Notes: a model not told the origin generated them from the letters alone. Shown: positions 1,057 to 47,131, counted from the first letter of the stretch. The stretch: 64,000 nt of DNA from Candidatus Doudnabacteria bacterium (GCA_016788665.1 JAEUSF010000001.1:48222-112221); one strand, 5' to 3'. Made by a program: numbers and translations.

Positions 1057-3651
1057 CTAAAAATTGTTGCCTGGAATTTCGTAATTTAGAATAATACTGG
1101 TATCAGCGGAATTGCCTGTTACGTCCACCGCTTTGGCTGCTATTGTGTGTTTGCCGTTTCCATAGTTATCTGGCAAATCAAAAATATATGGAATGGAATT
1201 TATGCTCTTTATAAAATTGCCGTCCACCGAAATATCTATTCTGGCAATGTTATTTTCTCCAGTTGCTGCTATTTCTATTCGGACTGGCAGGCTGAAGACC
1301 GAAGAGTTATCTTCGGGTGAGTTTATACTTATAGCGGGTGGATTGCCTATATTTGTTGGGGTTGTTGAACCGTTCAGTGAGGCAGGGTAACCAAAGCCAT
1401 TTTTTAAGGCCCAGCCATTTACTGCATTTTCCCAATTTTGATTTTTTGGATTCTCGCTTTTATAAACTAAGTATGTGCGGTAGATTATTTGATTAGGGGG
1501 TGTTAGAGGTGTGGCTGGCTGCCCGGTAAAAGAATCTATCTCGACCGCTTTATGTACGTCGTCGTATTCAGTAGGGATACTGTAGCTGGCAAAAATTTCT
1601 GTCTTTGTAGTTGGAGTAAGTTGAGTTGGAAGTTTGCCCGAAACACTGTCAACAACAATTTCTTGAATACCCGAAGGTCTTTCAAATCGTTCGACAGGAG
1701 TGTCTTTTAGGGCGTTGGTCATAAACTCTTTCCAGATTGGTGCGGCAACAATGACACCGTCAGCTCCCCTCTTCATAAGACATTTAGGGTTTTTACTTCC
1801 ACAATTATTTCCACTCCATACTCCTGCTGCCAATGACGGAGTAAATCCCATAGTCCAGCCGTCGTGCCAGTCGTTTGTGGTGCCGGTTTTAGCTGCTACG
1901 GGTCTTCCTGGTAGTGTTAGTGGTGAGTTGGAGCCGAATACGTAGCTCCGGGCATTGTTATCTGACATAATATCTGTCAGTTCATAAACTGCCTGTGGGT
2001 CTAAAACTTCTTGGGGCTTATTTTGAAATTCTTCGACTATTTGATTGCTTCTGTCTTGTATTTTTAGAATAAAAGTAGTGGCATTTTTTACGCCCTTGTT
2101 TGCCAAAGTTGCATATGCGCTTGTGTGGTCAACCAGTTTTACTTCGCATCCTCCCAATACCAACGAAAGGCCACAATTAGACAGGGGGCTGGTTATGCCA
2201 AGTTTTTTAGCTGTCTCTGTGGCATTATCTACTCCGACTAATGCCAGAGTTTTTACGGCAGGTATGTTTAAACTGCCTGCTAAGGCTTGTCTCATAGAGA
2301 TGGGTCCCCTTTCAGAACCATCGTAATTTTGAGGTATATAGTCTTTGTTATTAAACTTTCCGAAATTTGTTGTGACATCCATTAACATACTCGCTGGGGC
2401 ATATTTGTGTTCTTTGTCGAAAGCGGTTACATATACATATGGCTTAAAACTGGAACCAGGCTGTCTGGGGGCAGTGGCTACGTTGAATTGAGGTTCAAAC
2501 AGACAATTGTCACCAGATTTGCAGCTTTCTGGTGAAGATGTTCCAAAATAGTTTTTACTGCCCACCAGAGCCAAAATTTGGCCTGTCTTTGGTTCAATAG
2601 CAACCAAGCTGGAGTTGTTGGCGTTGTATTTTTTAGCGTTATTTTCTGCATACTTATTAACAGCATCCTCAGCGATTTTTTGTAATTTTGGGTCTAGTGT
2701 CGTGTACACTTTTAAACCACCTTCTTGCAAGGTTTTCTCACCAAACTTTTCAGCCAAATAGTCTTCCACCATAAAGACAAAATGAGGCGCGGTTATAGAA
2801 GTTCTTATGTTGCTAAAAGCCACCTTTTCTTCCTTGGCTTGTTTTTCCTGTTCCTGGCTTATGTAACCATCTTCCCGCATTCGCTGCAAAATGTAATTTT
2901 TTCTACCATCTAAAGTTGTTCTGTTGGGGCCGAATGGGTTGTAGCGGCTAGGAGATTGTGGTAAGGCTGCAAGATAAGCTGCCTCTGCTAAGCTTAAGTC
3001 TTTGGCGTGTTTTCCAAAATATCCTTGGCTGGCTGCTTCGGCTCCGTAAGTGTTTTTTCCGTAGGGAATTTCGTTAAGGTACATTTGCAATATTTCATCT
3101 TTTGTAAACCTGGTTTCCATAGCCACGCTTAAAATAACCTCTCTAGGTTTTCTGTCCCATGCGCTGTAGTTTATTAAAATTGCATTTTTTACCAGCTGTT
3201 GTGTTATGGTGCTGCCCCCTCCCCCACTCCTGTCCAAATTCACGGCCAGTCTGAAAACCGCCCTGCCTATTCCTGTGAAAGAAATGCCATGATGTTTATA
3301 GAAATCTTTATCTTCTATGGCAATAGTGGCCTTTTTCAAGTACTCGGAAATTTCTTCAGATGGCACCAGAGTTCTTTTTACTTCGCCGTGTATTTCGTAT
3401 AGCAAGGAGTTGTCGCGAGCATAAATCTTTGTGCTTTCGGCAACTTGTCTTTCTACTAGTTTGCCCGGGTCAGGTAGGTCTTTAGAGTAATATAAAAACA
3501 GTACGGCGAACAAAAATATTCCAACCGCTGCAGTTCTAAAAAACCAAAGTGCTAAAGTTTTTATATTCCACTTAAAACTTCGTCCTTTGGATTTTTTAAA
3601 TTTTATTTTTTTCCCAGCCTTGTCTTTGCTCTCAAAGCTATATATCCGCAT
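1057..3651 (-). CDS. mrcA: class A penicillin-binding protein (bifunctional glycosyltransferase GT51 / transpeptidase), PBP1A-like
   Basis: N-terminal TM, GT51 motifs (GGSTITQQLVKN, RKxxE), transpeptidase SSFKP (SxxK) and KTGTT motifs, C-terminal extension. Confidence 0.85.
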   Translation of the reverse strand: MRIYSFESKDKAGKKIKFKKSKGRSFKWNIKTLALWFFRTAAVGIFLFAVLFLYYSKDLPDPGKLVERQVAESTKIYARDNSLLYEIHGEVKRTLVPSEEISEYLKKATIAIEDKDFYKHHGISFTGIGRAVFRLAVNLDRSGGGGSTITQQLVKNAILINYSAWDRKPREVILSVAMETRFTKDEILQMYLNEIPYGKNTYGAEAASQGYFGKHAKDLSLAEAAYLAALPQSPSRYNPFGPNRTTLDGRKNYILQRMREDGYISQEQEKQAKEEKVAFSNIRTSITAPHFVFMVEDYLAEKFGEKTLQEGGLKVYTTLDPKLQKIAEDAVNKYAENNAKKYNANNSSLVAIEPKTGQILALVGSKNYFGTSSPESCKSGDNCLFEPQFNVATAPRQPGSSFKPYVYVTAFDKEHKYAPASMLMDVTTNFGKFNNKDYIPQNYDGSERGPISMRQALAGSLNIPAVKTLALVGVDNATETAKKLGITSPLSNCGLSLVLGGCEVKLVDHTSAYATLANKGVKNATTFILKIQDRSNQIVEEFQNKPQEVLDPQAVYELTDIMSDNNARSYVFGSNSPLTLPGRPVAAKTGTTNDWHDGWTMGFTPSLAAGVWSGNNCGSKNPKCLMKRGADGVIVAAPIWKEFMTNALKDTPVERFERPSGIQEIVVDSVSGKLPTQLTPTTKTEIFASYSIPTEYDDVHKAVEIDSFTGQPATPLTPPNQIIYRTYLVYKSENPKNQNWENAVNGWALKNGFGYPASLNGSTTPTNIGNPPAISINSPEDNSSVFSLPVRIEIAATGENNIARIDISVDGNFIKSINSIPYIFDLPDNYGNGKHTIAAKAVDVTGNSADTSIILNYEIPGNNF

Positions 3652-3708: not shown

Positions 3709-4896
3709 ATGTCATCTAATATAATTGAAGAAATTTTAACCCGGGGTGTTGAGGAAGTTATTGACAAAGAGCAGTTAAAAATTGCCCTAATGTCAAAAAA
3801 AAGTCTTAGAATTAAGCTTGGTATTGACCCCACTTCTCCCAATATTCATATAGGTAGGGCTGTGGTCTTATGGAAGCTTAGAGCGCTACAGGAACTGGGT
3901 CACAAGGTGGTTTTTATTGTGGGTGATTTCACCGGCCAAATTGGCGACACCTCTGACAAAGATTCCGAGAGACCCATGTTGTCAGATGAGCAGATAAAAA
4001 ATAATATTAAAACTTATTTTAAACAGGCAGGAAAAATTATAGATGCTAAAAAAGCAGAGATGCATTATAATTCTCGGTGGTTAAAGAAGTTGGGTTTCTT
4101 AGAGATTGGAAAAATTGCCGACTTGTTTGGTCTCCATGAGTTTGAGGCGAGGGAAAATATTTCTCGAAGGCTAAAAAGTGGAAAAAGAGTTTCTTTAAGA
4201 GAACTGCTCTATCCTCTAATGCAAGGTTATGACAGTGTTGCGGTTAAGGCCGATGTAGAACTTGGCGGGACGGACCAAAGGTTTAATTTGCTTGCGGGTA
4301 GGGTGATTCAACCGTATTATGGCCAAAAACCCCAAAATATTTTAATGACCACCCTAATGGAAGGAACAGATGGTAGAAAAATGTCTTCTTCTTGGGGAAA
4401 TGTAATAAATATTACCGACTCCTCAAAAGACATGTTTGGTAAAGTCATGTCGGTGGGAGATGGTCTTATAAAAAAATATTTTGTTTTAGCGACCCGAGTG
4501 TCTTTAGACAAGGTAGAAGAGATTTTAAGTTTGAACAAAAATCCCAGAGACCAAAAACTTCTATTGGCTCAAGAAATTACTTCTTTATATTATGGTCCTA
4601 AAGTTGCAGAGTCGGAAAAAGAAGCGTTTATAAAACAGTTTACAAAAGGAGAGTTGCCGGAAGAGATTGAAAAACGGAAAATTACTGGTAAATTGTTGCC
4701 GGCTGGGCAGTATAAGTTGTCTAAATTACTAAAAGAAACCGGGCTTGTTTCTAGCACAGGAGAGTCTAGAAGATTAATAGACCAAAAAGGTGTAAAAGTA
4801 AATAATGTGGTTAGCGGGGATGTTGATTTAGTTATAGATGGTAAACAAGAGTATTTGTTGCAAGTTGGAAAAAGACGGTTTCTAAAAATAGTATAA
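3709..4896 (+). CDS. tyrS: tyrosyl-tRNA synthetase with C-terminal S4 domain
   Basis: Class I HIGH-like region (PTSPNIHIGRAV), KMSSS (KMSKS variant), C-terminal S4-like RRLIDQKGVKVNN. Confidence 0.8.
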   Translation: MSSNIIEEILTRGVEEVIDKEQLKIALMSKKSLRIKLGIDPTSPNIHIGRAVVLWKLRALQELGHKVVFIVGDFTGQIGDTSDKDSERPMLSDEQIKNNIKTYFKQAGKIIDAKKAEMHYNSRWLKKLGFLEIGKIADLFGLHEFEARENISRRLKSGKRVSLRELLYPLMQGYDSVAVKADVELGGTDQRFNLLAGRVIQPYYGQKPQNILMTTLMEGTDGRKMSSSWGNVINITDSSKDMFGKVMSVGDGLIKKYFVLATRVSLDKVEEILSLNKNPRDQKLLLAQEITSLYYGPKVAESEKEAFIKQFTKGELPEEIEKRKITGKLLPAGQYKLSKLLKETGLVSSTGESRRLIDQKGVKVNNVVSGDVDLVIDGKQEYLLQVGKRRFLKIV

Positions 4897-6527: not shown

Positions 6528-6556
6528 GTTCAGAATTAAGAAGTAAGAATTATGAA

Positions 6557-7225
6557 TTAAGATTTGAAACTAATGATAACAGTAATCTCCCCTTTTATGC
6601 TTGGTTTTTCTTGAAGTTGGTGGATTACATCTAGCGGGTTGCCGCGAATGAATTCTTCGTGGAGTTTGGTAAGTTCTCTTGCTACAACTACGTTAGCTGT
6701 GGGAAATGCATTTGCTATGTAAGAAAGGGTTTTTAAAATTCTTTCCGGAGATTCATAAAAAATTGCTGTGGCTTCTGCTGCTTCCGCGGCTTGTAAGGCA
6801 GAAACGGTTTTTGCAGCTGTCTTTTGCAAAAATCCGAGAAACATAAAACGGTCGGTGGGCAGGCCCGAGGCAGAAAGCGCTGCTATGGCAGCATTGGCGC
6901 CAGGGATTGGAATTACTTGTACGTTTTGGTTAACGCATTCTCTAACCAGTCTAAACCCCGGGTCGCTTATGCCAGGAGTTCCGGCATCGGTAATAAATGC
7001 ACCGTTTTGTTTGGAGAGTCTTCGGGCTAGTTCTTTAACTACTTGCTGCTCGTTATGTTCTGCGAATTGGAATATTTCTTTATTTCTGATATCTAAATGT
7101 TGAAGCAACCTATTTGAATAACCAGGATTTTCTGCAACTATAAAATCGCACGCTTTTAAGGTTTCTATCGCGCGTAAGGTTATATCCCCCAGGTTCCCTA
7201 TTGGTGTTGCAACAACGTAAAGCAT
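6557..7225 (-). CDS. rsmI: 16S rRNA (cytidine1402-2'-O)-methyltransferase
   Basis: MLYVVATPIGNLGDITLRAIETL...DFIVAE, tetrapyrrole-methylase fold typical of RsmI. Confidence 0.85.
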   Translation of the reverse strand: MLYVVATPIGNLGDITLRAIETLKACDFIVAENPGYSNRLLQHLDIRNKEIFQFAEHNEQQVVKELARRLSKQNGAFITDAGTPGISDPGFRLVRECVNQNVQVIPIPGANAAIAALSASGLPTDRFMFLGFLQKTAAKTVSALQAAEAAEATAIFYESPERILKTLSYIANAFPTANVVVARELTKLHEEFIRGNPLDVIHQLQEKPSIKGEITVIISFKS

Positions 7226-21671: not shown

Positions 21672-23948
21672 TTAAAATTTTTCTTTTAAAGAATAAAACA
21701 TGTCATCAATTTGTTTGTACTCGGAAGAATCAGTACTCGACGAAGTTCTATAGTCTTCTGGGTCTATATCCACATATTTTTCATTTTCTAGCTCATGTAC
21801 CTTATGCTCTAGCTGTTTTTCAATTTCTTTAATATCAACTTCTAACTCCTCGCTTATTTCTCTAAAATCAGTTTTTAAATCCTCGTAGGAGCCTTCAGAA
21901 ACGTAATCAATTTCGTTTTCTAGTATATCATTTATTGAACTTTTTATTTCATCAGACAATTTAATTTTTTTATATTCCTCGGGAAAAATTTCCGCAAATT
22001 TAATAAAATATTTTACATCCTCAATTGACTCCATCGTTTTAGAAAAGAAATCGACAATGCCAGTTTTATCAAATTTGGTGAAAGGAGCAATTATTTCTAG
22101 TATATCAATATAAAAATTTTTATCTTCCCCTTTAATTTTATTATATTCAATATGTCCAAATATTTTAAAAACAAAATTCTGCCATTCCAAATCTTCGTTT
22201 AAACTCAAATTATTGATTGCTAATTTGAGTTTATATAAAATACTCGTCGACCTCCTAGCCCAATAATAAATAGCGTCAGCGCTAAAAGAATGTACAGTTC
22301 TTATCAAATGAGAGATTTTAAAATCAGAAAGTCCATTTTTTATATTTTCTTTAATTGTTTTAACTTGTTTTTTGCTTAGGATTATTTTTTCATTGCTCTC
22401 TTCATTAACCGAAAAAACTGTAAAAAATTGATTCAAAAAAATAACGTTCGTGATTAGGTCGTCAACTAAATCGGAATCTCTTTTTAGGTAATTTAGCAAA
22501 AAATCTTTGATTGAAGGATTTTGGAAGTCAATATATATTTGACCTCTTCCATCTCTTTTTGAAGATATGAATGTATTTTCAAGCTCCTTAATAGAGTCTT
22601 TTAATGAAAAGGAGTTAAAAGTAAAATTGTATTTTTTTGAATATTTTTGGGCAAATTTTATAAATGCTTCCTTTAAATCTTCAAATAACGCTGGGCCTCC
22701 CATAGAAAGCAAAACCATTAGTAAGCATTTGGAAAAATTAGTAATTTGCTTTTCATAACTGTGTTTCCATATCAATTCAGGGTTGTCTAGGTAATTAATA
22801 AATTTGTCAAAAAATTTTAAAGGCTTTATATTTTCCCAAATGCTAGGATTTGTAATAGTTTCAATTATCCTAGGATTATAATTGGGATGGTTAATAATAC
22901 CCATATAGTTTTTGTCCTCAAGGATGTTTTCTATATAGGGCTTGCTTATGTTTGAAAAATATAGATGATTGTATAAAATTCTTGACTTAACAAGTTTATT
23001 ATATTTTGATAAATCCAAAATACATTTTGCCAATTGAAGATTTTTATTATCTAGGCGTTCATAATTTACCAGGGCTTGATTTAAAATATATTCTCTTGTA
23101 GTCAGAATTAAGATTTTATTTTTAGATTTATTAACCAAGTCAATAAATTTAATTATTCTTTCATCCTCGTTGTTAGATATTTTATTTTCTAAAAAATTAG
23201 TTCCCAAAAAATCATCAAAAAGAAAAATTTGTTTTCTTTCAGGATTTAGAGCCTTGTATCCCTCCCCAATGTTATCAGATAAGTACACAAAATCTTCAAA
23301 GTCATTAGCCAAAAAATGATATACCAGTATTCTAGCCAATGTCGTTTTGCCTATACCTGGTATTCCCGATATTATTACGTACTTTTTTTTACTTAAGATT
23401 TCGAGAGCTTCGTTATAACTATCGTTCTCAACATACACTTTAATATTCTCTTTAATTGATTCTTCCTCGAAACTCGATTGATTGTATACTTTACTTTGTA
23501 CCAACTTTTCAAGAATAGAAGTACTAGATAACCATAACTTGAAATGTCTTTTTTCTACATCGGGGAATTTTCCGAGTAAATTATTTAAATCGCTTCTGCT
23601 GAAGATGTCATTAGGAGAAATGATTATAGGCTTACATAAATCAAAAATAGTTTGTTTTTGTTTTCGTGATAAAGGTGAGGATGTTGTTAGTATATATCTT
23701 TTTGGTTTAAGTTTAATCGCTTTTCCGGCCTCTTTTTTTATATTTGAAATTAAGGAATTATAATTTTCGTATCTTTTACACTGCACAATAATTGTTTCCT
23801 CTTTGTCTTGATAGCAACGTAAATCAATTCCACCATCTCGACCAGCAATAAAACTTTCCAGACGAATATTAAGGAATTTTTGAAGCAAGTCCCTAGACAG
23901 AACCTCAAATTCAATCGACGATAAATTTAAAAAATTATAAATATCCAT
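21672..23948 (-). CDS. Avs-like antiviral STAND protein: N-terminal Mrr-like PD-(D/E)xK nuclease + STAND (NB-ARC-type) NTPase + helical C-terminal domain
   Basis: Residues about 10-70: FEVLSRDLL...GRDGGIDLR...IIVQCKRY (Mrr_cat-like, D...QxK). Walker A VIISGIPGIGKTTLARIL, Walker B KQIFLFDDFLG, then ILILTTREYIL (NB-ARC/STAND TTR motif). About 430 aa helical C-terminus. 3-nt gap to the upstream OLD gene. Confidence 0.8.
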   Translation of the reverse strand: MDIYNFLNLSSIEFEVLSRDLLQKFLNIRLESFIAGRDGGIDLRCYQDKEETIIVQCKRYENYNSLISNIKKEAGKAIKLKPKRYILTTSSPLSRKQKQTIFDLCKPIIISPNDIFSRSDLNNLLGKFPDVEKRHFKLWLSSTSILEKLVQSKVYNQSSFEEESIKENIKVYVENDSYNEALEILSKKKYVIISGIPGIGKTTLARILVYHFLANDFEDFVYLSDNIGEGYKALNPERKQIFLFDDFLGTNFLENKISNNEDERIIKFIDLVNKSKNKILILTTREYILNQALVNYERLDNKNLQLAKCILDLSKYNKLVKSRILYNHLYFSNISKPYIENILEDKNYMGIINHPNYNPRIIETITNPSIWENIKPLKFFDKFINYLDNPELIWKHSYEKQITNFSKCLLMVLLSMGGPALFEDLKEAFIKFAQKYSKKYNFTFNSFSLKDSIKELENTFISSKRDGRGQIYIDFQNPSIKDFLLNYLKRDSDLVDDLITNVIFLNQFFTVFSVNEESNEKIILSKKQVKTIKENIKNGLSDFKISHLIRTVHSFSADAIYYWARRSTSILYKLKLAINNLSLNEDLEWQNFVFKIFGHIEYNKIKGEDKNFYIDILEIIAPFTKFDKTGIVDFFSKTMESIEDVKYFIKFAEIFPEEYKKIKLSDEIKSSINDILENEIDYVSEGSYEDLKTDFREISEELEVDIKEIEKQLEHKVHELENEKYVDIDPEDYRTSSSTDSSEYKQIDDMFYSLKEKF

Positions 23949-23951
23949 AAA

Positions 23952-25913
23952 TTAAAGAGACTGGAATAAAGTAGTTATAACGCTAGGTATGTTTTGTTTG
24001 TCTTTAATTACAGATTTTATTAATTTGCCACTTTTTTCTCCCTTACTTGGCAGGCAGGCTTTTTTCTCTTTATTACTATCAAGATAAACTTTGTCACTTA
24101 GTAGCTTGTAAAACTTATGTTCTCTATCATTCTTTAAATCTTTTCTAATTTCTCTAAAAACACTCTCGTCATAATTAAGACCGCAACACTCTTTTAAAAC
24201 TTCAATCCAAACGCTGTCGTCTATGGAATCTTCTAAGTCATAAGTCCCAATCAAAGTAATATTTTTAGCGGATAAAGCTGAATCAGAGTCAAGCAGGTAA
24301 TAAACATGTTCTTCGCTTTTTTGAAAGTTTTTTAAAAGCTCTTCAAACATAGTTTTATTTTTTTTACATTCATCTTTCCCCCCTAGATTAATAAGTTGAA
24401 TTGAATCCTGCATTAGTGTTCTTCCAAAATACAACTCATAAAAATAAGGTATTAAAATTTCTTCGGTGGGTCCTTCTACACACAAAAATTTATCGTAAAA
24501 TAAGAAGTCGCTACTTTTAACTTTTAATGAGTTTAGGACATCTTCAACATTAGAGCATTCTAAAATTTCAGAATAACCATCTTTCAAAGTAAAACGTTTT
24601 ATATTTTTAATGTTCAGTCTGTCAACAAAAATTGTCGAATGAGTGCTAACAAAAACTTGATAATAACTTTGAGATAATTTTTTTAAAATATTATATAAAT
24701 CTCTTTGAGCAGCAGGGTATAGATGAATTTCTGGTTCATCAAAACACCATAGAAATTTTTTTCTAATATCTTCAGTCGTTATTTTTTGTAAACTTGCCCA
24801 TTTAATAAATGCAAACCAAATCTGTTTTTTTACTCCCTCTCCTTGTGACTCCAGTCTTATATCACCATCACTACTAGTTTTATTTATCATAATATCTGAA
24901 ACATTTTCCTCAATATTAAAACTAACTGCTGCTTTTATGGCAGTAATATTTGGGAGTTCTTCAAAAAGATTGCCGGCTTTCCCTGCAAGTTCTTGATTTA
25001 CTTCTTGTGTAACGGTTTCACTGAGTTCCTTTGCACTTGTTTGCAGCGTATTTTTATATCCTTCTATTTTTGAAGCCATTGAATCAGCCGCAAGTTTTTC
25101 GACATCTTTTAGAGTTACGTTCCAGTCAATATAACGACAAACTGGGAAAAACCCCTTATCTTTTTTTACAAAATCTTTGTGCTCAGCCCAGCTTAGCTCC
25201 ACATCACTTTTACTATAAATTGCCCTAATCAATTCAATGTTTTTAAATCTCCCTTTTTTATTTTCGTTTACAACTTCATCATTTGAAATATCCAATTCAC
25301 CCTTTTTATCTTTTAAAAAAGTTTGATTTTGACTCCAAAGCTGTAATGGATTCGATTTTGTTTCTTTAAGGCAAACAAAATATTTACCCGAGGAATTTTC
25401 CTTTGTAAATTGCTTGAGTATATATAGTTTATTTTCGGTTAAACTTTCTATGCTCCACTTAAGTATGTTAGTCGAGCTTTCGACAAAATCTTCACTAATA
25501 TCTTTTTCTTCAATTTTAAACTCCCCGATTATTGTCGTTGTGTTTTCAGTAAAATTAAAGATGGGTAAATTTAACTTTTCAAAGATTGAGTTATAATCTA
25601 ACTCGCTTATGCCCGTGTTTGAAATATCTGAAGTTAATTGGCCTTCTTTCGCAATATGAAAAGTACTATCCGTTTCTAATAGTAAACAAATGGCTTTTAA
25701 AAAAACAGATTTTCCAGCATCATTTATGCCAATGAAAACATTTGGAATATCCGGCTGTAAATCGACTATGACGTTTTTACAACTTTTGTAATTTATAATA
25801 GCCAAACGTTCTAAAATCATATTGATATTTTTTATTAAAGGCACCGCTGAATCAATTATAGGCTTAATTTTGCGAACAAACAAGTATAAATTTGTACAAT
25901 TTTTTAAGAACAT
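23952..25913 (-). CDS. OLD-family (overcoming lysogenization defect) nuclease: ABC/AAA_15-type ATPase + Toprim
   Basis: Walker A FIGINDAGKSVFLKAI; long coiled insertion; Walker B/D-loop LWCFDEPEIHLYPAAQ; Toprim glutamate FLCVEGPTEEILIP and DxD YLLDSDS. A probable true start is the internal ATG at 25818-25820 (MILERLAIINYK...). Confidence 0.85.
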   Translation of the reverse strand: MFLKNCTNLYLFVRKIKPIIDSAVPLIKNINMILERLAIINYKSCKNVIVDLQPDIPNVFIGINDAGKSVFLKAICLLLETDSTFHIAKEGQLTSDISNTGISELDYNSIFEKLNLPIFNFTENTTTIIGEFKIEEKDISEDFVESSTNILKWSIESLTENKLYILKQFTKENSSGKYFVCLKETKSNPLQLWSQNQTFLKDKKGELDISNDEVVNENKKGRFKNIELIRAIYSKSDVELSWAEHKDFVKKDKGFFPVCRYIDWNVTLKDVEKLAADSMASKIEGYKNTLQTSAKELSETVTQEVNQELAGKAGNLFEELPNITAIKAAVSFNIEENVSDIMINKTSSDGDIRLESQGEGVKKQIWFAFIKWASLQKITTEDIRKKFLWCFDEPEIHLYPAAQRDLYNILKKLSQSYYQVFVSTHSTIFVDRLNIKNIKRFTLKDGYSEILECSNVEDVLNSLKVKSSDFLFYDKFLCVEGPTEEILIPYFYELYFGRTLMQDSIQLINLGGKDECKKNKTMFEELLKNFQKSEEHVYYLLDSDSALSAKNITLIGTYDLEDSIDDSVWIEVLKECCGLNYDESVFREIRKDLKNDREHKFYKLLSDKVYLDSNKEKKACLPSKGEKSGKLIKSVIKDKQNIPSVITTLFQSL

Positions 25914-25953
25914 CGTAGTATAAATTTGATTATTTGATTAACTAATCAAGCTA

Positions 25954-27898: not shown

Positions 27899-28471
27899 AT
27901 GTATATACCAGTTATATTAGGTTCTGTTAGAGAAGGCAGAAGAAGTATTGACCCTGCTAAGTTAATGGTAGAGAGGATTAAGGCAATGGGGCACGAGTCA
28001 GTCTTGGTTGATTTCAAAGAAATGCCACTGCCTTTTTTTGACTCGGCTGTGGTTCCAGTGGCAATGAAGGGTGTGTATCCAAACGAAAATGCTCAAAAGT
28101 GGAGCGGTATAGCTCTTAAGGCAGACGCGTTTGTTTTAGTTGTTTCTGAATATAACCACGGATATAGTGCGGTTTTAAAAAACGCATTAGATTGGCTGTA
28201 TATGGAGTTTTCTAAAAAGCCTTTTGGCATGGTAGGCGTTTCGGACGGTAAGTTTGGAGCCATGAGGGCAATGGAACAACTCAGGTCGGTTATAGAGAAT
28301 TTTGGAGCGTTTGCTATAAGGGAAGTTGTACCCTTTGGGCCGGTTCAAGACGCATTCGACCAAAGCGGAAAACTTATAGACGAGTCCTATAACAAAAAAA
28401 TTGAAGGCTTGTTAACCAATTTGGTTGAGTTTGCAGGAGCAATGAAGCCAATAAGACCGAACTTAAATTAA
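27899..28471 (+). CDS. NAD(P)H-dependent FMN reductase family oxidoreductase
   Basis: MYIPVILGSVREGRRS... flavodoxin-like fold typical of SsuE/ArsH-type reductases. Confidence 0.75.
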   Translation: MYIPVILGSVREGRRSIDPAKLMVERIKAMGHESVLVDFKEMPLPFFDSAVVPVAMKGVYPNENAQKWSGIALKADAFVLVVSEYNHGYSAVLKNALDWLYMEFSKKPFGMVGVSDGKFGAMRAMEQLRSVIENFGAFAIREVVPFGPVQDAFDQSGKLIDESYNKKIEGLLTNLVEFAGAMKPIRPNLN

Positions 28472-28545
28472 AAATGCAAAATTCAGAATGCAAAATGGTA
28501 GGTGCTCTGTTATACATTTTGCATTTTTAATTTGTAATTTTGCAT

Positions 28546-29550: not shown

Positions 29551-29611
29551 AATGCAAATGCCAAAGTATAATTCAAATACTAGGAATTAATTTGAGATTT
29601 GTAATTTGAAA

Positions 29612-35875: not shown

Positions 35876-35964
35876 AAATAAATTTCAAATATCAAATGCC
35901 AAATTTCAAATAAATACTTGGCATGATTTTGAATTTGAAATTTGTAATTTGTAATTTTATATTA

Positions 35965-36363
35965 TTATTCCCCTTCTACTTCTGCCTGGGGGCTTTTTTT
36001 GCCATTGCCGTTACCATTGCTCCCCATGCTGCATTTGCCTGAAAATTGAGCTCCGTCTTCTACGCGCAAAATTTGGCAAGTAATATCGCCTGTTACTTTG
36101 GCTGTGCTTTGGAATACTAGGTGGCCTGAAATTTTTAAATTTCCCAATATTTCTCCGCCGATTACTCCATTGCCCGCTACTATATCGGCGCTAATTTTTG
36201 CTCCCTCGTTTACATAAACGCTCTGAGTAGTTTTTACCTTTCCTGCTACCTGTCCTTCTATTTTTATATTGCCTTCGCTATTTAAGTCGCCTTGAATTTT
36301 TACCGAAGGGCCTACGACGGTTTCTGCTGCGGCGTTTAAATTGTCGTCTAATGTGCTGTTCAT
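35965..36363 (-). CDS. bactofilin family cytoskeletal protein
   Basis: Repeated beta-helix pattern (IEGQVAGKVKT..VYVNEGAKISADIVAGNGVIGGEILGNLKISGHLV). Confidence 0.8.
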   Translation of the reverse strand: MNSTLDDNLNAAAETVVGPSVKIQGDLNSEGNIKIEGQVAGKVKTTQSVYVNEGAKISADIVAGNGVIGGEILGNLKISGHLVFQSTAKVTGDITCQILRVEDGAQFSGKCSMGSNGNGNGKKSPQAEVEGE

Positions 36364-36961: not shown

Positions 36962-37042
36962 ATTGTAGCATTGACGCTGGTTGCTTTCAACTAAGCAAAA
37001 TGTTATTATTTATTGGAATTCTATTAAATGTAATAAACTTTT

Positions 37043-37240
37043 ATGTCTAATAAAAATACTTCCCAGTCTTTTAAAGCGGCAGGCTCCGAGCACGTAGCGG
37101 AATATGGCGTTATAAAGCACGATTTGGTCAAAGTTGTAATTCTGAATGCGGTTTATTTGGCAGCCATAGTGGCTTTGTATTTAAGTAACAAACAAAGCGG
37201 TTTCCTGGAAAAATGGTTTGCAAAAGTGTTTAATTTTTAA
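37043..37240 (+). CDS. small membrane protein (65 aa)
   Basis: Hydrophobic helix (VVILNAVYLAAIVALYL) and a dedicated terminator (aaagccagaactactaagggttctggtttttt) at 37247-37287. Confidence 0.35.
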   Translation: MSNKNTSQSFKAAGSEHVAEYGVIKHDLVKVVILNAVYLAAIVALYLSNKQSGFLEKWFAKVFNF

Positions 37241-37301
37241 ATATATAAAATAAAAGCCAGAACTACTAAGGGTTCTGGTTTTTTGTTTGGCGGCAGTGAG
37301 C

Positions 37302-37445
37302 TTATGTGTTGGCTTTGGTGGTGGTTTTTTCCTGCGCACACTTCGGGCACTTGGGCACTTTGCCAATATAACCTCGTATTTTCAGTCTCCCGTGCTTGGG
37401 GCAGCTAAATGTCCTTAGCCCTAGGTAGTTGTGAAGAGCCCGCAT
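37302..37445 (-). CDS. small zinc-ribbon protein (47 aa)
   Basis: Preferred start MRALHNYLG... is preceded by RBS aaaGGGGGGtccaaATG. CPxH...CPKC four-ligand zinc ribbon; the ORF-track N-terminal extension is rejected. Confidence 0.4.
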   Translation of the reverse strand: MRALHNYLGLRTFSCPKHGRLKIRGYIGKVPKCPKCAQEKTTTKANT

Positions 37446-37595
37446 TTGGACCCCCCTTTCTTTTGTTCCTGTCTGTAGTTTAGCAAAATTCAAAAAGGTG
37501 CAAAATAAAGGGTAAAAATTTGCATTTAATATAGTTGCGTGAAAATATTTTATTGCTATAATATATAGCATATACGCTATATTAAATATATCAAT

Positions 37596-39107
37596 ATGTC
37601 AGAAACTAAAAAAATAGGGCAGTTTATTTCGGAGCTTAGGCAGGAAAGAGGTTTGACGCAAGGTGAGTTGGCGCAAGCATTAAAAACCACACAGTCCGCC
37701 GTTGCAAGAATGGAAAAAGGTCAGCAAAATTTTTCTACAGAAATGCTTAGTAAAATAAGCAAAGTACTAAACAAGGAAATTATTACTTTGGCGGGGCAGA
37801 GCGTGAATTTTAAAGTTGAGGGCGGGCATAAATTAAAAGGCAGAATTGTTACGAACACTTCAAAGAATGCCGCCTTGGGTCTCTTGTGTGCTTCTCTGTT
37901 AAACCGCGGGGTTACAACTCTAAAAAATGTTCCTAAAATAGAAGAGGTTTTCAGAATTTTGGAAGTTATAAATAGCATTGGGGTAAAAACCGAATGGAAA
38001 AATTCTGACTTGGTTATAGTGCCTCCGAAAAAGTTTAGTATAGAAGGGCTTAATTACGAAGCGGCAATAAAAACCCGCAGCGTTATTATGCTTATGGGGC
38101 CCTTAATACATTTTGTTAAAAAATTCTCACTCCCCTTTGCAGGCGGGTGTAAGCTTGGGGAGCGAACTGTCGCACCCCATTTGTTTGCTTTGGAAAGTTT
38201 GGGAGTGGAAATAAAAACTGTGCATGATCATTACGATGTCGAAGCTAAGAAGTTAAAACCGGCAGAAATTGTTTTGTATGAAATGGGTGACACCGTTACA
38301 GAAAATGCTCTTATGGCTGCAGCGCTTGTGCCTGGTAAGACCACAATAAAATATGCATCGGCAAATTATATGGTTCAAGATATGTGTTTGTTTTTGGAGC
38401 ACATGGGGGTCAAAATCGAAGGAGTGGGTACTACCACTTTAATGGTGTGGGGTAAAGAAAAAATAGACGAAGATGTGGAGTTTAGCGTTATGGAAGACCC
38501 TATAGAGTCAATGATGTTTTTGTCATTGGCTGCTGTAACCAATTCGTCTATTGTGATAGAGCGTTGCCCAATAGATTTTTTGGAGCTTGAATTGTATAAA
38601 ATGCGCAAAATGGGTTTTAAATATAAAATTATAAAAAGTTATAAATCTGGTAATGCCCATACCAATTTGGCAGATATCCAAACTTTTGAGTCCTCGCTGG
38701 TGGCCTTGGGTGAAAAAATTCATCCTCTGCCTTCAAATAGCGGCATAAACATAGACAATTTGCCATTCTTTGTGCCTATAGCGGCAAAAGCTAAAGGTAA
38801 AACTTTAATTCACGATTGGGTATATGAGAATCGTGCTATATATTATTTGGAGCTAAATAAGCTTAGGGCAAATATAAGTTTGGCAGATGCTCATAGGGTT
38901 TATGTTGAAGGACCGACTAAGTTTAAGGCGGCGGAAGTTATTTGTCCGCCCGCACTTCGTCCGGCGGTAATTATTTTAATTACTATGTTGGCGGCTGAGG
39001 GTACCAGTATTTTGCGAAATGTTTATTCCATTGCACGCGGATACGAAGATCTGGCTAGTCGACTTAAGTCCCTTGGTGCTAAAATAGAAGTATTGAAAGG
39101 TATATAA
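37596..39107 (+). CDS. murA: UDP-N-acetylglucosamine 1-carboxyvinyltransferase with N-terminal XRE-type HTH domain fusion
   Basis: Residues 1-62 form a complete HTH_XRE (FISELRQERGLTQGELAQAL...). Residue about 70 onward is canonical MurA (KLKGRIVTNTSKNAALGLLCA...; active-site Cys in FAGGCKLGERTVAPH). TATAAT promoter upstream. Confidence 0.85.
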   Translation: MSETKKIGQFISELRQERGLTQGELAQALKTTQSAVARMEKGQQNFSTEMLSKISKVLNKEIITLAGQSVNFKVEGGHKLKGRIVTNTSKNAALGLLCASLLNRGVTTLKNVPKIEEVFRILEVINSIGVKTEWKNSDLVIVPPKKFSIEGLNYEAAIKTRSVIMLMGPLIHFVKKFSLPFAGGCKLGERTVAPHLFALESLGVEIKTVHDHYDVEAKKLKPAEIVLYEMGDTVTENALMAAALVPGKTTIKYASANYMVQDMCLFLEHMGVKIEGVGTTTLMVWGKEKIDEDVEFSVMEDPIESMMFLSLAAVTNSSIVIERCPIDFLELELYKMRKMGFKYKIIKSYKSGNAHTNLADIQTFESSLVALGEKIHPLPSNSGINIDNLPFFVPIAAKAKGKTLIHDWVYENRAIYYLELNKLRANISLADAHRVYVEGPTKFKAAEVICPPALRPAVIILITMLAAEGTSILRNVYSIARGYEDLASRLKSLGAKIEVLKGI

Positions 39108-42371: not shown

Positions 42372-42704
42372 ATGATAGATCCAGAATTACAACATTATTT
42401 GTCCGGCATTAATCAGCATTTGGGCGAAATTAAAAAAAACCAAAAGGTTGGTGTTTGGAGAGCATTTTTTAATGGGGTCTTTGGTGCGTTGGGGTATGCT
42501 GTAGGACTGGCTATTGTTGTTGGAATTTTAGGGTGGATATTAAAGGAAACGGGTTATTTGGGAAAGTTTAGACAACAAGCAAGGGACTTTCAATCAATTA
42601 TAAATGAGTTAAAAAATTTAAGACAACCATTTAACGAAACAGGGGAGAGTGTAATTACATTGCCGGATGGAAGGGAAGTAAAGGTTATTTCTCCCACAGA
42701 GTAA
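42372..42704 (+). CDS. hypothetical small membrane protein (110 aa)
   Basis: One or two TM helices (FFNGVFGALGYAVGLAIVVGILGWIL); no known motif. Confidence 0.45.
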   Translation: MIDPELQHYLSGINQHLGEIKKNQKVGVWRAFFNGVFGALGYAVGLAIVVGILGWILKETGYLGKFRQQARDFQSIINELKNLRQPFNETGESVITLPDGREVKVISPTE

Positions 42705-42760
42705 AATCTTGAAGTATTTCGCAATATAAGTTAAAATTATTTGAGTTAATTGTAATAAAT

Positions 42761-42834
42761 GGGCCAATAGTATAGTGGTAATACACATCCATGGCATGGA
42801 TGGGTTCCGGGTTCGATTCCCGGTTGGTCCACCA
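42761..42834 (+). tRNA. tRNA-Ala, anticodon GGC (G3:U70)
   Basis: GGGCCAA...CATCC-ATGGCAT-GGATG...CCGGG-TTCGATT-CCCGG-TTGGTCC-A-CCA. Confidence 0.85.
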
Positions 42835-43015
42835 GCCTTTCAGCCTTCGTAGCCGGTAATTAGATTTAAGTTTTATCGTTTTGTTTTGCATTACTTACAA
42901 CATAAGCATTTAAACCAAGTTTGCTTCGACTAAGTGGGCGCTAAAGCTTTTGGCTGGCTTGCGCCAAATGCGGAAGCTTGAGTAAAAGGTTTGTCGAAGG
43001 TTGTTTTGTAAAAAA

Positions 43016-43089
43016 CGGGATGTAGTATACCGGTAGTACGCGCGCTTCGGGTGCGTGAAGACAGGGTTCGATTCCCTGCATCCCGACCA
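43016..43089 (+). tRNA. tRNA-Pro, anticodon CGG
   Basis: CGGGATG...CGCGC-TTCGGGT-GCGTG-AAGA-CAGGG-TTCGATT-CCCTG-CATCCCG-A-CCA. Confidence 0.85.
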
Positions 43090-43319
43090 GACTTCGCTGA
43101 AGCTACGTCTGGCCTTTGGCCAGCAAGCAATCCTAAAAGATTTATCGAAGCTTGGTTGGGTAACTAACGAAGTCTGTGTCCACCGAAGCCCCGCCAGGGC
43201 GGGGCGTAGGCGGACTATTCAATGTGGATCAAAAGTTTTTAGAAAGCTAATATTGGTGAGTGTTAGAACCCCCTAAAAGGGGGTTTTAATATGCTTCAAT
43301 ATAATGTTAAAATTAACCT

Positions 43320-44083: not shown

Positions 44084-45547
44084 TTGTGTTCTTGCCTGCC
44101 AAATTCTAAGGTGAAAAATATGAAAATTTTTAACGTAATAAAATACCAGCTTTATTTGCTTCAGCTGGAAAATTATGAACTGGTTCGTTATTTTGTTTTG
44201 CTTTTTAAAAAAGGCATATTACCGCCGGTTGGATTACGAAAAAGCCTTGTTTGGACTAAGAAAGCCCTATTGCTTTTTAGTTTGGCTGTTGCTACCCATT
44301 TGGTATTGCCAGCTGTTGTTTTCTTTTATTTTACTTCAGGGCTTTCGGTGGTAAGTGTTAGGTATTATGCATTGTGCGCCTTACTGCTTACTGCCTACTA
44401 TTTATTACAGTTTCTATACTTTATACTTTATACTTTATACTCTGTTTTATTCTGGCCGCTGGATTTCATAGTGAAGCAAATAATTATCAAAAAAGCTAAG
44501 TTCAAAGTAAAATATCTTGGTTCCCGAATAAAAATAATAGGTATTGCTGGTAGTTATGGTAAAACTACCATGAAGCATGCGCTTACTAAAGTACTGGGTG
44601 AAAAGTTTAAAGTGCTCAGTACCCCGGAAAGTGTAAATACTTCAATCGGTGTAGCAAGGTGGATACTAAAAGAAGTAGATGAGTCAGCTCAAATTTTAAT
44701 AATTGAAATGGGGGAGCATTACCGAGGTGACATTGAGGCGCTTTGTAAAATAGCCAGGCCAGATATTTCTGTTATAACCGGCATTAACGAAGCACATTTG
44801 GAGCGTATGGGCAGTTTGGACGAAATTGCGTCGACGGTTTTTGAGGCGGTGAGTTATTCAAAACCGGGAGCCGTAATTGTACTAAATGGTGACGACAAGA
44901 ATGTTATGGGTCTTTACAAGGAATTTGTTTGGAAAGACCATAGAGTGGAGAAGTTTCAAATTTCAAATTTCAAATTTCAAAAATTTAACGCCGAAGAGCT
45001 TTTTTGGACGGGTAACCATCCTGAAGCAGGGGAAATAAAAATACATTTATTAGGCGAGTACGCTTTGGGGTATGCAGATGCGGCAATTCAGGTTGCTAAA
45101 AGCTTTGTTATTTCTTGGGAAGAAGTAAGAAGGGGTATAGAAAAAATAAAGCCAGTAGAACATAGGTTGCAACCAATTAGGTCGGCGGGTGATTTGTTGA
45201 TAATTGACGATGCTTACAATGGTAATCCAGAGGGCGCAAGTGAGGCTATTAGGGTTTTGTCACGCATTGAAAATCGAAGGAAAGTTTATATTACTCCTGG
45301 ACTTGTAGAGATGGGCAAGGCGACGAAAGAAGTGCATATTGAAATAGGTGAGCAGTTAGTTGGTGTAGCAGATATAGTAGTGCTAATTAAAAACAGCGTA
45401 ACACCGAGTATAGAATTAGGAATTAAGAATAGAACAGAAATTATTTGGTTTAACACAGCTCAGGAAGCACACTCAAAACTGAGTACTATTTTAAAGCCGG
45501 GAGATGTGGTGGTATTCCAAAATGACTGGGGAGATAACTATGTTTGA
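44084..45547 (+). CDS. murF: UDP-N-acetylmuramoyl-tripeptide--D-alanyl-D-alanine ligase (MurF) with hydrophobic N-terminal extension
   Basis: Mur ligase motifs GIAGSYGKTT, PDISVITGINEAHLERMGSLDEI, DAYNGNP, PGLVEMG. The N-terminal about 120 aa is predicted TM, unlike the canonical MurF N-domain. Contains heptamer tandem repeats. Confidence 0.8.
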   Translation: MCSCLPNSKVKNMKIFNVIKYQLYLLQLENYELVRYFVLLFKKGILPPVGLRKSLVWTKKALLLFSLAVATHLVLPAVVFFYFTSGLSVVSVRYYALCALLLTAYYLLQFLYFILYTLYSVLFWPLDFIVKQIIIKKAKFKVKYLGSRIKIIGIAGSYGKTTMKHALTKVLGEKFKVLSTPESVNTSIGVARWILKEVDESAQILIIEMGEHYRGDIEALCKIARPDISVITGINEAHLERMGSLDEIASTVFEAVSYSKPGAVIVLNGDDKNVMGLYKEFVWKDHRVEKFQISNFKFQKFNAEELFWTGNHPEAGEIKIHLLGEYALGYADAAIQVAKSFVISWEEVRRGIEKIKPVEHRLQPIRSAGDLLIIDDAYNGNPEGASEAIRVLSRIENRRKVYITPGLVEMGKATKEVHIEIGEQLVGVADIVVLIKNSVTPSIELGIKNRTEIIWFNTAQEAHSKLSTILKPGDVVVFQNDWGDNYV

Positions 45548-46709
45548 AATATCAAATATCAAATATCAAATATCAAAGTTAAGGCATGTCTTTACAAGGC
45601 CTAGAGTAAGCTACGAGCCGCTTATTGAAGTGAGGATTTCTAAAGAGGCGATTTTGCATAATCTAAAAACTTATAGAGAAGCTTATCCAAAGTTTGGATT
45701 CGTGCCAGTTTTAAAAAGCAATGCCTATGGGCATGGGTTAGTAGAGGTTGCGAGTATTTTAGACAAAGAGAATGCGCCGTTTTTTATGGTGGATTCTTTT
45801 TATGAAGCTTTGGTTTTAAGAAGAGCAGGAATTAAAACCAAAATTTTGGTGTTAGGCTACGCTACGCTTGAGCAAATAAATAAAAATAATTTAAAAGATG
45901 TAAGCTTTGCGATTATAGACTTAGAGCAGTTAAAAAATATTTCAGCTAACTTAATAAGGAAAACTTTTTTTCATTTAAAAATTGACACGGGAATGCACAG
46001 GCAAGGCATGTTACCTGGGCAAGTAATGGAGGCGGTAAAAATTATTCGAAGCAACAGTAATTTTATTTTGGAAGGTGTGTGTAGTCATTTTGCTGATGCG
46101 GATGGAAAAGACCAGTCTTTTTCAAAAGGACAAATAAAACTTTGGAATGAAGTTTCGAGAGATTTGCAAAATCTATTTAGTTCTATTAAATTTTTGCATT
46201 TGTCCAATACGGGTGGGGCGTTTTATTTACCCGAAATAAATGCGAACGTGGGACGTTTGGGTATTGGCCTGTATGGATTCAATACTTCCCATTTTAGCAA
46301 TTTGAACTTAAAGCCAGCTTTAGAAATGGTTTCGATTGTAACTTCCATAAAAACTATTTCCGCTGGAGAAAAAGTAGGCTACAATAATTTATATACCGCT
46401 ACGCGGCCGACTAAAATTGCAACAGTGCCAGTTGGTTATAACGAAGGTTTGGATCGCAGATTATCCGATAAGGGCTTTGTAAAAATTAATAACTCCTTTT
46501 GCCCTATTGTGGGACGTATAAGTATGAATATGTGCAGCATAGATGTTACAGAAATAAAAAATATAAAGTTAGAGGATGAAGTCGTTGTAATAAGTAGAAA
46601 TTCACAAGATAAAAATTCAGTAGAAAGTATATCGGAGCTTACGGGTCAGATACCTCATGAAATTTTGGTTGATGTGCCAGGGTATTTAAAAAGAGTTGTT
46701 AGTGGTTAA
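45540..46709 (+). CDS. alr: alanine racemase
   Basis: PLP-lysine motif VLKSNAYGHG; start ATG 45540 overlaps the murF stop (ATGTTTGA). The ORF track gives an alternative start at 45504. Confidence 0.85.
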   Translation: MFEISNIKYQISKLRHVFTRPRVSYEPLIEVRISKEAILHNLKTYREAYPKFGFVPVLKSNAYGHGLVEVASILDKENAPFFMVDSFYEALVLRRAGIKTKILVLGYATLEQINKNNLKDVSFAIIDLEQLKNISANLIRKTFFHLKIDTGMHRQGMLPGQVMEAVKIIRSNSNFILEGVCSHFADADGKDQSFSKGQIKLWNEVSRDLQNLFSSIKFLHLSNTGGAFYLPEINANVGRLGIGLYGFNTSHFSNLNLKPALEMVSIVTSIKTISAGEKVGYNNLYTATRPTKIATVPVGYNEGLDRRLSDKGFVKINNSFCPIVGRISMNMCSIDVTEIKNIKLEDEVVVISRNSQDKNSVESISELTGQIPHEILVDVPGYLKRVVSG

Positions 46710-46748
46710 ATTTGTAATTTTATAGTTTTTAATTTTTAAATAAACCCT

Positions 46749-47093
46749 ATGAACTATGATCTCGAGGAGCGTACAGCAAAGTTCGGTGAGAATATTTTAA
46801 ATTTTTTAAAAACTATTCAGGCAGATCATATAACCAAGCCTTTAATAAACCAGCTTGTTCGCTCGGCAACAAGCATAGGTGCTAATTATATGGAGGCGAA
46901 TCAAGCAAGTTCAAAAAAAGATTTTTACAATAAAATAAGAATTTCTCAAAAAGAGTCTAATGAAACCAAGCATTGGATAAGAATGTTATCAACTGTTATG
47001 GGAGAAGAAAAAGAGCAATTAAGAAATTTTTGGAAAGAAGCGCATGAATTAACATTAATTTTTGCAAAAATATCGAAAAGTAATCAAAAGTAA
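46749..47093 (+). CDS. four-helix-bundle protein (23S rRNA intervening-sequence protein family, TIGR02436)
   Basis: SIGANYMEANQASSKKDFYNKIRISQKESNETKHWIRM is the canonical signature; inserted between alr and ddl. Confidence 0.75.
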   Translation: MNYDLEERTAKFGENILNFLKTIQADHITKPLINQLVRSATSIGANYMEANQASSKKDFYNKIRISQKESNETKHWIRMLSTVMGEEKEQLRNFWKEAHELTLIFAKISKSNQK

Positions 47094-47131
47094 ATTATTT
47101 AAAAATTATAAAATTACAAATTAAAAATTAT

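Follow-up and report, generated by a model that had tools for sequence, protein, structure and literature searches.

Heptanucleotide tandem arrays inside murF and alr of a Candidatus Doudnabacteria genome and their counterparts at recurrent positions in related loci

Introduction

What keeps a tandem repeat whose unit is not a multiple of three in place inside the coding sequence of core cell-wall genes? The question is raised by a 64,000-nt stretch of DNA from a Candidatus Doudnabacteria bacterium (GCA_016788665.1, JAEUSF010000001.1:48222-112221; hereafter the window, with positions counted from its first letter), in which three perfect arrays of 7-nt units lie inside murF and at the junction of murF and alr. 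Heptamer repeats were recognized as being in excess in bacteria in 2007. The excess is unexplained and has been reported almost solely for intergenic DNA; murF lets the phenomenon be followed inside an essential and structurally understood enzyme, where reading frame, length and fold serve as built-in controls. The answer that we favor, and hold to be reasonably probable, is that the arrays are old, in-frame, self-perpetuating coding microsatellites which belong to a lineage-wide population of heptamer repeats and are held in place by misalignment together with protein selection.

Perfect Heptamer Arrays in murF and alr

Tandem Repeats Finder (TRF) analysis of the whole window gave three perfect period-7 arrays in murF/alr, all on the plus strand and all with 100% matches. 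TTTATAC (reported by TRF as TATACTT) is repeated 3.9 times at 44415-44441 and encodes MurF residues 99-108 (LYFILYTLYS); this position is referred to as site A. At site D (44954-44981), 4.0 copies of TTTCAAA, a rotation of AAATTTC, encode residues 279-288, which fall inside KFQISNFKFQKF (residues 278-289). Site F (45547-45577) holds 4.4 copies of AAATATC at the murF/alr junction and corresponds to Alr residues 3-13 (EISNIKYQISK). An exhaustive scan of the 64 kb for perfect repeats with a period of at least 7 and at least 3 copies returned arrays A, D and F only. The initial annotation had reported heptamer tandem repeats in these genes, and both TRF and our own scan agree with it, as do the translations that it gave; its first array, placed at 44412-44439, is real, but the position was about 2-3 nt off (44413-44419 reads TCTATAC, with one mismatch).

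The preference for period 7 is far beyond chance expectation. Six sequence windows in the 64 kb matched themselves at 17 or more of 21 positions at lag 7, vs. a mean of 0.0 in 20 dinucleotide-preserving shuffles, and none did so at lags 4-6 and 8-13. At the lower threshold of at least 14 of 21 self-matches, lag 7 gave 287 positions. The other lags from 4 to 13 gave 11-69, and lag 14, itself a multiple of the period, gave 161. The site D unit (as AAATTTC) and the site F unit AAATATC differ by a single base, and both also occur in an intergenic array at 35880-35912. The units TTTATAC, AAATTTC and AAATATC are stop-free in all frames, every one of the seven cyclic triplets of each being a sense codon. 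RNA structure z-scores at arrays A, D and F were 0.40, 0.45, and -1.08, respectively; no RNA structure belonging to the arrays was found, and an Rfam search gave only tRNAs. Direct reading of the sequence showed no terminal inverted repeats or target-site duplications at the three arrays.

The murF gene (44120..45547, plus strand, 475 aa) starts at the ATG at 44120 after AAGGTGA; its assignment comes from the ORF list, Pfam, PDB matches, an AlphaFold2 (AF2) model and Foldseek. The protein carries the Pfam domains Mur_ligase_M and Mur_ligase_C and qualifies as a P-loop Mur ligase. Its best PDB matches are MurF enzymes both by sequence (7e-33) and by fold (the Foldseek top 10 are all MurF). The NCBI protein identical to it carries the name Candidatus Doudnabacteria MurF, and the organism is therefore a member of the Candidate Phyla Radiation. 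In the AF2 model (mean predicted local distance difference test score, pLDDT, 92.4), the N-terminal ∼135 aa (residues 1-136, 44120-44530) are predicted to form a hydrophobic helical domain in place of the canonical N-terminal domain. This domain has an invariant N-terminal motif, KYQLYLLQLENYEL, and the architecture is common to ∼960 homologs from the Candidate Phyla Radiation; structural matches to solved MurF enzymes span only ∼365 columns. Site A falls in predicted helices (80-98 and 100-110 of the model), and site D is modeled as a beta-hairpin of the central domain (strands 275-279 and 285-290, pLDDT 96-97).

The alr gene (45540..46709, plus strand) encodes 389 aa from the ATG at 45540, which has GGAG 6 nt upstream and overlaps the murF stop as ATGTTTGA. 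Ala_racemase_N and Ala_racemase_C were detected by Pfam, the former beginning at residue 33. Because there is no in-frame ATG, GTG or TTG between 45540 and the conserved SYEPLIEV segment, the site F array is probably translated as Alr residues 3-13.

Arrays at the Same Positions in Related Loci

The window was compared with murF loci from species-representative genomes (L001-L021), with metagenome murF loci (L024-L046), and with the DNA encoding the closest proteins, namely L022 (MurF 86% identity), L023 (80%), and L047-L049. Arrays recur at six positions, designated A (membrane helix), B (KAKSKILNLKS), C (VLSxKYxVLST), D (hairpin), E (IELGIKNYEL), and F (the post-murF spacer). The initial annotation had asked whether the repeat-encoded segments are lineage-specific insertions and had named in advance the observation that would speak against this, i.e., the same peptide segments in distant orthologs. 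That is what was found: orthologs at 52-60% identity share the peptide and, at matching codons, the DNA array itself. (AAATTTC)4 occupies the site D codons in L001, L004, L006, L024, and L026, whose MurF proteins are 56-60% identical to that of the window, and also in L022; the arrays are therefore old. A perfect (TTTATAC)4 is present at site A in L017 (MurF 55% identical). In the close relatives L022 and L023, sites A and D have the same length as in the window and show point differences only. The arrays at sites A and D add no residues. The site D peptide aligns ungapped to A. baumannii MurF (4qdi), site C covers a segment of conserved length among MurF enzymes, and the conserved strand that precedes the catalytic GH motif of the adjacent alpha/beta-hydrolase is spanned by an array with no change in length.

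Synonymous positions tell a similar story at site D. Codon identity among identical amino acids relative to the window was 0.38-0.46 gene-wide vs. 57 of 69 at site D in seven distant orthologs, which are not phylogenetically independent, although single comparisons are already improbable (11 of 11 for L001 vs. the window). These codon comparisons indicate that the site D arrays are kept uniform at the nucleotide level beyond protein constraint.

The site D region, taken as the hairpin plus three flanking residues per side, spans 18 residues in the majority of the 60 variants listed for 120 homologs. Among the listed variants the peptides fall into families such as KFQISNFKFQKF, RFKIEDLRLKKF, EYKVESIKYKVF, and LYQKSNIKNQKF, and each family is a different heptamer array (AAATTTC, AGATTTA, AAGTATA, AAAATCA). 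Further units were found at this site in L018 (AAATATC), L025 (CAGTATT), and L002 (AGTGAAA); units other than AAATTTC also build site D in L047, L048, and L049. Within arrays, lag-7 identity at site D was 0.56-0.84 vs. ∼0.2-0.3 at control lags, and the aligned identity between lineages with different units was 0.36-0.74. Within-array identity above between-lineage identity is the classical signature of concerted evolution. With at least seven heptamer arrays of different units encoding a single beta-hairpin in related lineages, the signature is a clean one, without length change.

Sites B and C carry near-perfect arrays in L001, L005, L006, L017, L025, and L047 and are decayed in the window (13/35 and 13/29), a patchwork of perfect and decayed sites as expected of a stochastic process. 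Site E is hypervariable. The window retains a remnant found by TRF at 45412..45430 (plus strand; AGAATTA/GAATTAN, 2.7 copies; IELGIKN, MurF residues 431-437), L022, L004, L018, and L047 have (GAATTAN)4 encoding IELGIKNYEL, and L023 has (AAAGATT)4. Other lineages show different arrays or insertions resembling miniature inverted-repeat transposable elements (MITEs). The MITE-like elements are palindromic and in frame (L001:11300-11420, L003, L006, L025; aligned to window 45410-45440), with termini GTCATTGCGAGG...CTCGCAATGAC and the translation SVIARS..TKQS..APSDA.GLAMT.

At site F, the (AAATATC)4.4 of the window is degenerate in L023 and is replaced by (GAATTAN)5 in L022. The post-murF spacer is built of repeats in most relatives, the AAATATC array being the local version of the window. 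In many relatives this spacer consists of 8-9-nt repeats with TTGACA (AAATTGACA...), a repeat class different from AAATATC (L001:11537-11580, L002:2570-2610, L003:2931-2975, L006:4672-4720, L027, L028, L029, L041). Gene callers are inconsistent in the placement of start codons around heptamer arrays: the alr start lies before the array in the window and is called after or inside it in L022 and after it in L023. The MurF 90% identity cluster has no second member, and exact-protein look-ups of MurF, Alr, and Ddl gave no strain variants on record.

Array Density and Unit Diversity

Counted over 46 loci (L001-L046), 108 arrays were found at lag 7 vs. 0, 27, 6, and 2 at lags 5, 8, 10, and 11, respectively. 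Their density over the same loci was 0.69/kb in murF, 0.097/kb in other coding sequence, and 0.25/kb in intergenic DNA. Among loci whose MurF is at least 50% identical to that of the window, referred to as the clade, murF had 1.88 arrays per kb, the adjacent alpha/beta-hydrolase gene 1.05, RNase HII 0.55, Wzy_C 0.48, ddl 0.23, and alr 0.20, and 15 other orthologous genes (∼47 kb) had 0; this density contrast is inflated because orthologous arrays are non-independent counts. Outside murF, arrays were seen in the genes for Wzy_C, the hydrolase, Ddl, RNase HII, and a glycosyltransferase. No murF arrays were found in more distant phyla (CPR2, Buchananbacteria, Magasanikbacteria, and others). The Jacksonbacteria locus L016 has 0 arrays in murF and 3 in ValRS.

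The ValRS gene of L016 (9151-11586; similar arrays in L037, L038, and L042) has two GAATTAC/GAATTAN arrays (NYELRITNYEL and NYELGITNYEL) and one of CAAGAAG.

The canonical units numbered about 55 among 101 arrays. A small common unit vocabulary was considered as a sign of a sequence-specific element and was borne out only in part: a few units recur (GAATTAN, AAATTTC/AAATATC, AAGTAGC) among the ∼55 overall. In candidate-phylum proteins, KFQISNFKFQ, NYELGIKNYEL, ISNIKYQ, and similar peptides are to be read as traces of repeats in the DNA and not as protein motifs.

A Proposed Misalignment Model for Array Maintenance

The specificity for period 7, the many units, the self-similarity that exceeds orthology, the constant length and frame, and the patchy decay make self-perpetuating microsatellites the best explanation of these observations. 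Heptamer arrays would have become established in coding DNA at a few tolerant positions in a Doudnabacteria-like clade. During replication or repair, the nascent strand would misalign transiently by one 7-nt unit, copy a few bases and realign, so that one unit is overwritten with the sequence of its neighbor and the length stays unchanged. Full one-unit slippage (±7 nt) would also occur; in murF or alr it would give a null allele that is purged. The expected outcome is concerted evolution, in which arrays remain near-perfect as the sequence of the gene around them diverges. A variant of the unit may spread across an array, leading to unit replacement over time, and arrays may creep over adjoining codons where the encoded residues are acceptable. 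Selection at the protein level would set the array boundaries, and the units must lack stops in three frames. T-rich units would accordingly be tolerated in membrane helices (F, I, L, Y, T), and A-rich units in a solvent-exposed hairpin or in the non-conserved Alr N-terminus (K, Q, I, S, N). The site F array would be read as an N-terminal extension of Alr because the alr start codon lies upstream of the array. Under this model the arrays would have no function of their own.

Several points weigh against the model. The misalignment mechanism is one that we infer from sequence patterns, and it leaves the 7-nt register itself without an explanation. The arrays are strongly clustered, from 1.88/kb in murF, 1.05 in the hydrolase gene, and 0.48 in Wzy_C down to 0 in the ∼47 kb of 15 genes. 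If the process is neutral, such clustering therefore calls for historical seeding plus self-perpetuation, and a local or functional cause of the clustering around murF may exist. In addition, GAATTAN and AAATATC recur in unrelated places and phyla. This recurrence could reflect a sequence-specific selection or process in place of chance, AT-richness and stop avoidance.

One candidate for a local cause, a replication origin or terminus, was dropped: the window has a strand switch and a jump in GC skew at ∼37-38 kb with no tie to the arrays. In that region (∼37000-38000), gene orientation changes from mostly minus to mostly plus and GC skew rises from ∼0 to +0.2-0.3, which may mark a replication origin or an operon boundary.

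Alternative Explanations

A more far-reaching reading is that coding DNA is actively converted to heptamer arrays by a lineage-specific process with a 7-nt register, which could be a property of the replicase or repair machinery or a templated mechanism dedicated to it. The arrays would then keep a crystalline state at set positions in cell-envelope genes, even between Patescibacteria that diverge at the phylum level, with replacement of whole-array units at constant protein length. We regard this reading as speculative and rather unlikely. If it is true, these genomes would offer a natural setting in which templated mutagenesis shapes protein sequence without altering length, and they could explain the bacterial heptamer excess.

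Alternatively, the arrays may be functional cis-elements, i.e., heptads that are read by a DNA- or RNA-binding protein and tune the envelope cluster of Wzy, hydrolase, murF, alr, and ddl. Two models for such elements are the heptads bound by ribbon-helix-helix omega repressors and the TAACTGA repeats put forward as sites of a translational regulator. Omega repressors of inc18 plasmids bind contiguous 7-bp heptads (WATCACW), direct or inverted, in promoter regions, each array being served by the cognate protein. The present arrays share the contiguous 7-bp units with the omega heptads; the one conserved heptad, the promoter location, and the cognate binding protein of omega were not found here. 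The persistence of array positions over deep divergence, the conservation of synonymous sites, the concentration of arrays in three neighboring envelope genes, and the recurrence of some units in unrelated places would all fit a cis-element, as would the intergenic arrays that often abut start codons, in the manner of TAACTGA repeats (PMC4679880). The diversity of the units argues in the opposite direction. There is no common unit (∼55 among 101 arrays), and unrelated units stand at the same site in close relatives, where a sequence-specific binder could not follow. Arrays have decayed in some lineages, including sites B and C of the window, the Jacksonbacteria murF is free of arrays while its ValRS has three, the genes beside intergenic arrays are functionally unrelated, and neither RNA structure at the arrays nor an Rfam family match was found. 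On balance a cis-element function is unlikely. A regulon among the genes beside the intergenic arrays was likewise considered and discounted, the neighbors being unrelated (YebC, a methylase, an MBL-fold protein, FMN reductase, DHH, RbfA, a DAGK-like protein, bactofilin, and TyrRS).

The initial annotation also raised the invasion of coding sequence by repeat elements, that is, the recent insertion of a small mobile or expanding repeat element. As a general account we find this improbable. The two murF arrays A and D involve no gain in length, orthologs that are only 56-60% identical share the array, terminal inverted repeats and target-site duplications are missing from the arrays, and the arrays encode structured elements according to the AF2 model, not disordered inserts. 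Ortholog alignments largely refute a recent mobile insertion at 44415-44441 and 44954-44981. At other places insertion fares better: in comparison with T. thermophilus ValRS, the L016 enzyme has insertions of 5-19 aa where its arrays lie, murF site E is a genuine expansion segment with assorted arrays and MITE-like insertions in relatives, and the array in the murF/alr spacer has been swapped for a different unit in L022. A recent mobile insertion is plausible for site E and for the ValRS arrays.

A contingency locus, in which one-unit slippage would reversibly turn MurF or Alr off in a subpopulation, has the arithmetic of the unit in its favor. Since 7 is not a multiple of 3, a change of one unit causes a frameshift, as the initial annotation had stated: in simulations of one- or two-unit changes, MurF was truncated to 114-128 or 284-310 aa (vs. 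475 aa) and Alr to 11-23 aa. Heptanucleotide switches within genes are known, an example being neuO. This gene of the E. coli K1 prophage CUS-3 carries a coding (AAGACTC)n with 3-53 repeats, and 66% of genomes are phase-OFF (PMC13001214). Like the arrays described here, neuO has a coding 7-nt unit that needs a frame-keeping copy number and encodes a heptad peptide. It is an accessory surface-modification gene with a variable tract; here the arrays have ∼4 copies, lack length variation at sites A and D, and reside in core genes that are in frame except in L029. Tracts of ∼4 units are short compared with the 3-53 units of neuO or the 13-24 units of hmw1A constructs. The copy number at sites A and D is identical in the window, L022, and L023, and the site D segment is of nearly constant length among the variants listed for 120 homologs. 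No murF frameshift caused by an array was found in ∼45 loci and 120 homologs, in contrast to the phase-OFF fraction of neuO, and the targets are core peptidoglycan enzymes and not surface or modification genes. The suggestion that the arrays are slippage-prone contingency tracts thus found no support, and phase variation of MurF or Alr is very doubtful.

Two candidate length variants were examined in this connection. The sole length difference in murF between the window and L022/L023 is 21 nt at site E, and its ends are not clean unit boundaries. The window is the shorter one relative to L022, which would suit a three-unit slippage, but the lost stretch holds 12 nt of non-repeat sequence; the difference is compatible with slippage and is not evidence for it. 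The murF gene of L029 was rejected as an OFF allele: it has a 1-nt deletion relative to L005 beside a T run (L029:6620-6640), outside any array. The L029 frameshift is either an assembly error or a pseudogene.

A further notion, that AAATTTC units act in programmed -1 ribosomal frameshifting, draws on the match of A_AAU_UUC to X_XXY_YYZ and on a single unit in the 44954 array that has the correct frame (TCA AAT TTC). It has a negligible probability and was rejected, as the -1 frame stops after six codons, no structure follows the site (z = 0.45), and conservation does not extend to the unit, orthologs using non-slippery site D units such as AAATATC, AGATTTA, and AAGTATA.

Comparison With Known Heptamer Repeats

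Self-perpetuating coding microsatellites, as favored here, would extend a known kind of element. Heptameric repeats are over-represented in bacteria, and a tie to the footprint of the polymerase active site has been proposed (Rehm et al., 2015, PMC4692102, which cites Mrazek, 2007, and the work on cyanobacteria). The examples given are GGGAATC in Xanthomonas, GGGGA(C/T)T in Nostoc, and the three tandem heptanucleotides of Calothrix PCC7601; most Xanthomonas arrays consist of 4 units, inverted pairs occur, and related species share array positions with differing sequences (PMC4692102). The present arrays have in common with these repeats the period-7 excess and the ∼4 units; about 9 of the 15 window arrays also share the location in spacers near gene ends, among them two inverted pairs capable of forming hairpins. 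In both cases relatives retain the array at orthologous positions but differ in its length and sequence, and polymerase slippage is the proposed origin. The Xanthomonas, Nostoc, and Calothrix repeats consist of one dominant G-rich unit per genome and are intergenic, whereas dozens of AT-rich units are found here. Unlike those repeats, the present arrays also occupy folded regions of an essential enzyme, leave its length unaltered, and change their unit.

TAACTGA direct repeats occur in Beggiatoaceae, cyanobacteria, and Bacteroidetes (MacGregor, 2015, PMC4679880). They too are heptamer direct repeats, present in 2-6 copies and mostly located a few nucleotides upstream of start codons; a minority inside ORFs gives heptad peptides (LSVISYQ), and their spread across phyla is unexplained. 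TAACTGA is a single unit, with related heptamers rarely repeated, and within ORFs it is found at protein termini. The present arrays differ in having many units and in occupying conserved positions in the interior of conserved domains. Borg elements offer another comparison: rapidly evolving perfect tandem repeats in ORFs of an uncultivated lineage are reported to create new intrinsically disordered regions (PMC9879509). Relative to that description, sites A and D add no length and encode an ordered helix and hairpin.

We concluded that heptamer microsatellites as a kind of element are already known and do not constitute a new system. No description of heptamer repeats in the Candidate Phyla Radiation or Patescibacteria was found in the literature. 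Three aspects appear to be undescribed, namely the heptamer arrays in Patescibacteria, their length-neutral presence in ordered parts of an essential enzyme at clade-conserved positions, and the turnover of the unit of a whole array. The murF arrays offer an unusually clean natural experiment on an unexplained mutational bias and a concrete way to test whether heptamer repeats are driven by replication machinery that misaligns in a 7-nt register.

Other Repeat Arrays and Features in the Window

With a threshold of at least 15 of 21 self-matches, 15 lag-7 arrays were called in the window. About nine of these, including two inverted pairs, lie in intergenic DNA, which makes up 13.6% of the sequence. 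Among the ∼70 genes of the window, murF is the only one with strong internal arrays. At least eight different units are present in the window alone, with no single dominant unit. The kinship of the coding arrays with the intergenic heptamer repeats, proposed in the initial annotation, holds: they belong to one genome-wide repeat family and share units with the array at 35880-35912.

In murF itself, an imperfect array of CTTACTG (2.9 copies by TRF, 44380..44399, plus strand) lies just upstream of site A at about MurF residues 87-94, in the hydrophobic helix region; the lag-7 segment around this array and site A extends over 44348-44451. Arrays of the CTTACTA/CTTACTG type were found at the same position in L001, L006, and L008.

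Many of the window arrays fill short spacers or abut start codons. Downstream of alr, an imperfect AATTTTT array (4.3 copies, 46709..46739, plus strand; TRF and lag-7 scan) fills the spacer to a 23S_rRNA_IVP-family gene (46749-47093), and an imperfect TTAAAAA/AAATTAN array (4.4 copies, 47099..47130, plus strand; TRF and lag-7 scan) abuts the start codon of ddl at 47132 (Ddl assigned by Pfam). The 23S_rRNA_IVP-family gene, located between alr and ddl, therefore has heptamer arrays on both flanks; it is absent at this position in L023. An imperfect AGAATTA array (4.4 copies, 6528..6567) fills the 29-nt spacer between TP_methylase and YebC genes and has the GAATTAN unit that is also seen at murF site E.

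One inverted array pair (35880..35966) is located in the spacer between the DAGK-like and bactofilin genes, with AAATTTC/AAATATC units at 35880-35912 and the complement at 35924-35966 (strong hairpin, z = -3.81). The orthologous spacer in L023 (1486-1558) has an inverted pair of another unit, AAGGATT, and both arms have therefore changed together. A second inverted pair (28465..28542), AAAATGC and its complement, lies between convergent FMN reductase and DHH phosphoesterase genes (strong hairpin, z = -4.05). AAATTTC-like units at 29510-29548 (plus strand) and their complement at 29585-29613 form an inverted pair around the start codon of a DHH-family gene at 29550; by its sequence, this pair could sequester the initiation region of that gene.

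A GTATAAT array (4.4 copies, 3666-3696) takes up most of the 57-nt spacer between the divergent gene 1057..3651 (minus strand) and the TyrRS gene 3709..4896 (plus strand), and its unit includes the -10 consensus TATAAT. A low-GC block at 22000-26000 (0.28-0.31 vs. 0.38 overall) contains two ORFs, 21672..23948 and 23952..25913, both on the minus strand, and may be foreign DNA. The ORFs at 42685-43276, which overlap tRNA genes at 42761-42831 and 43016-43086, are likely spurious.

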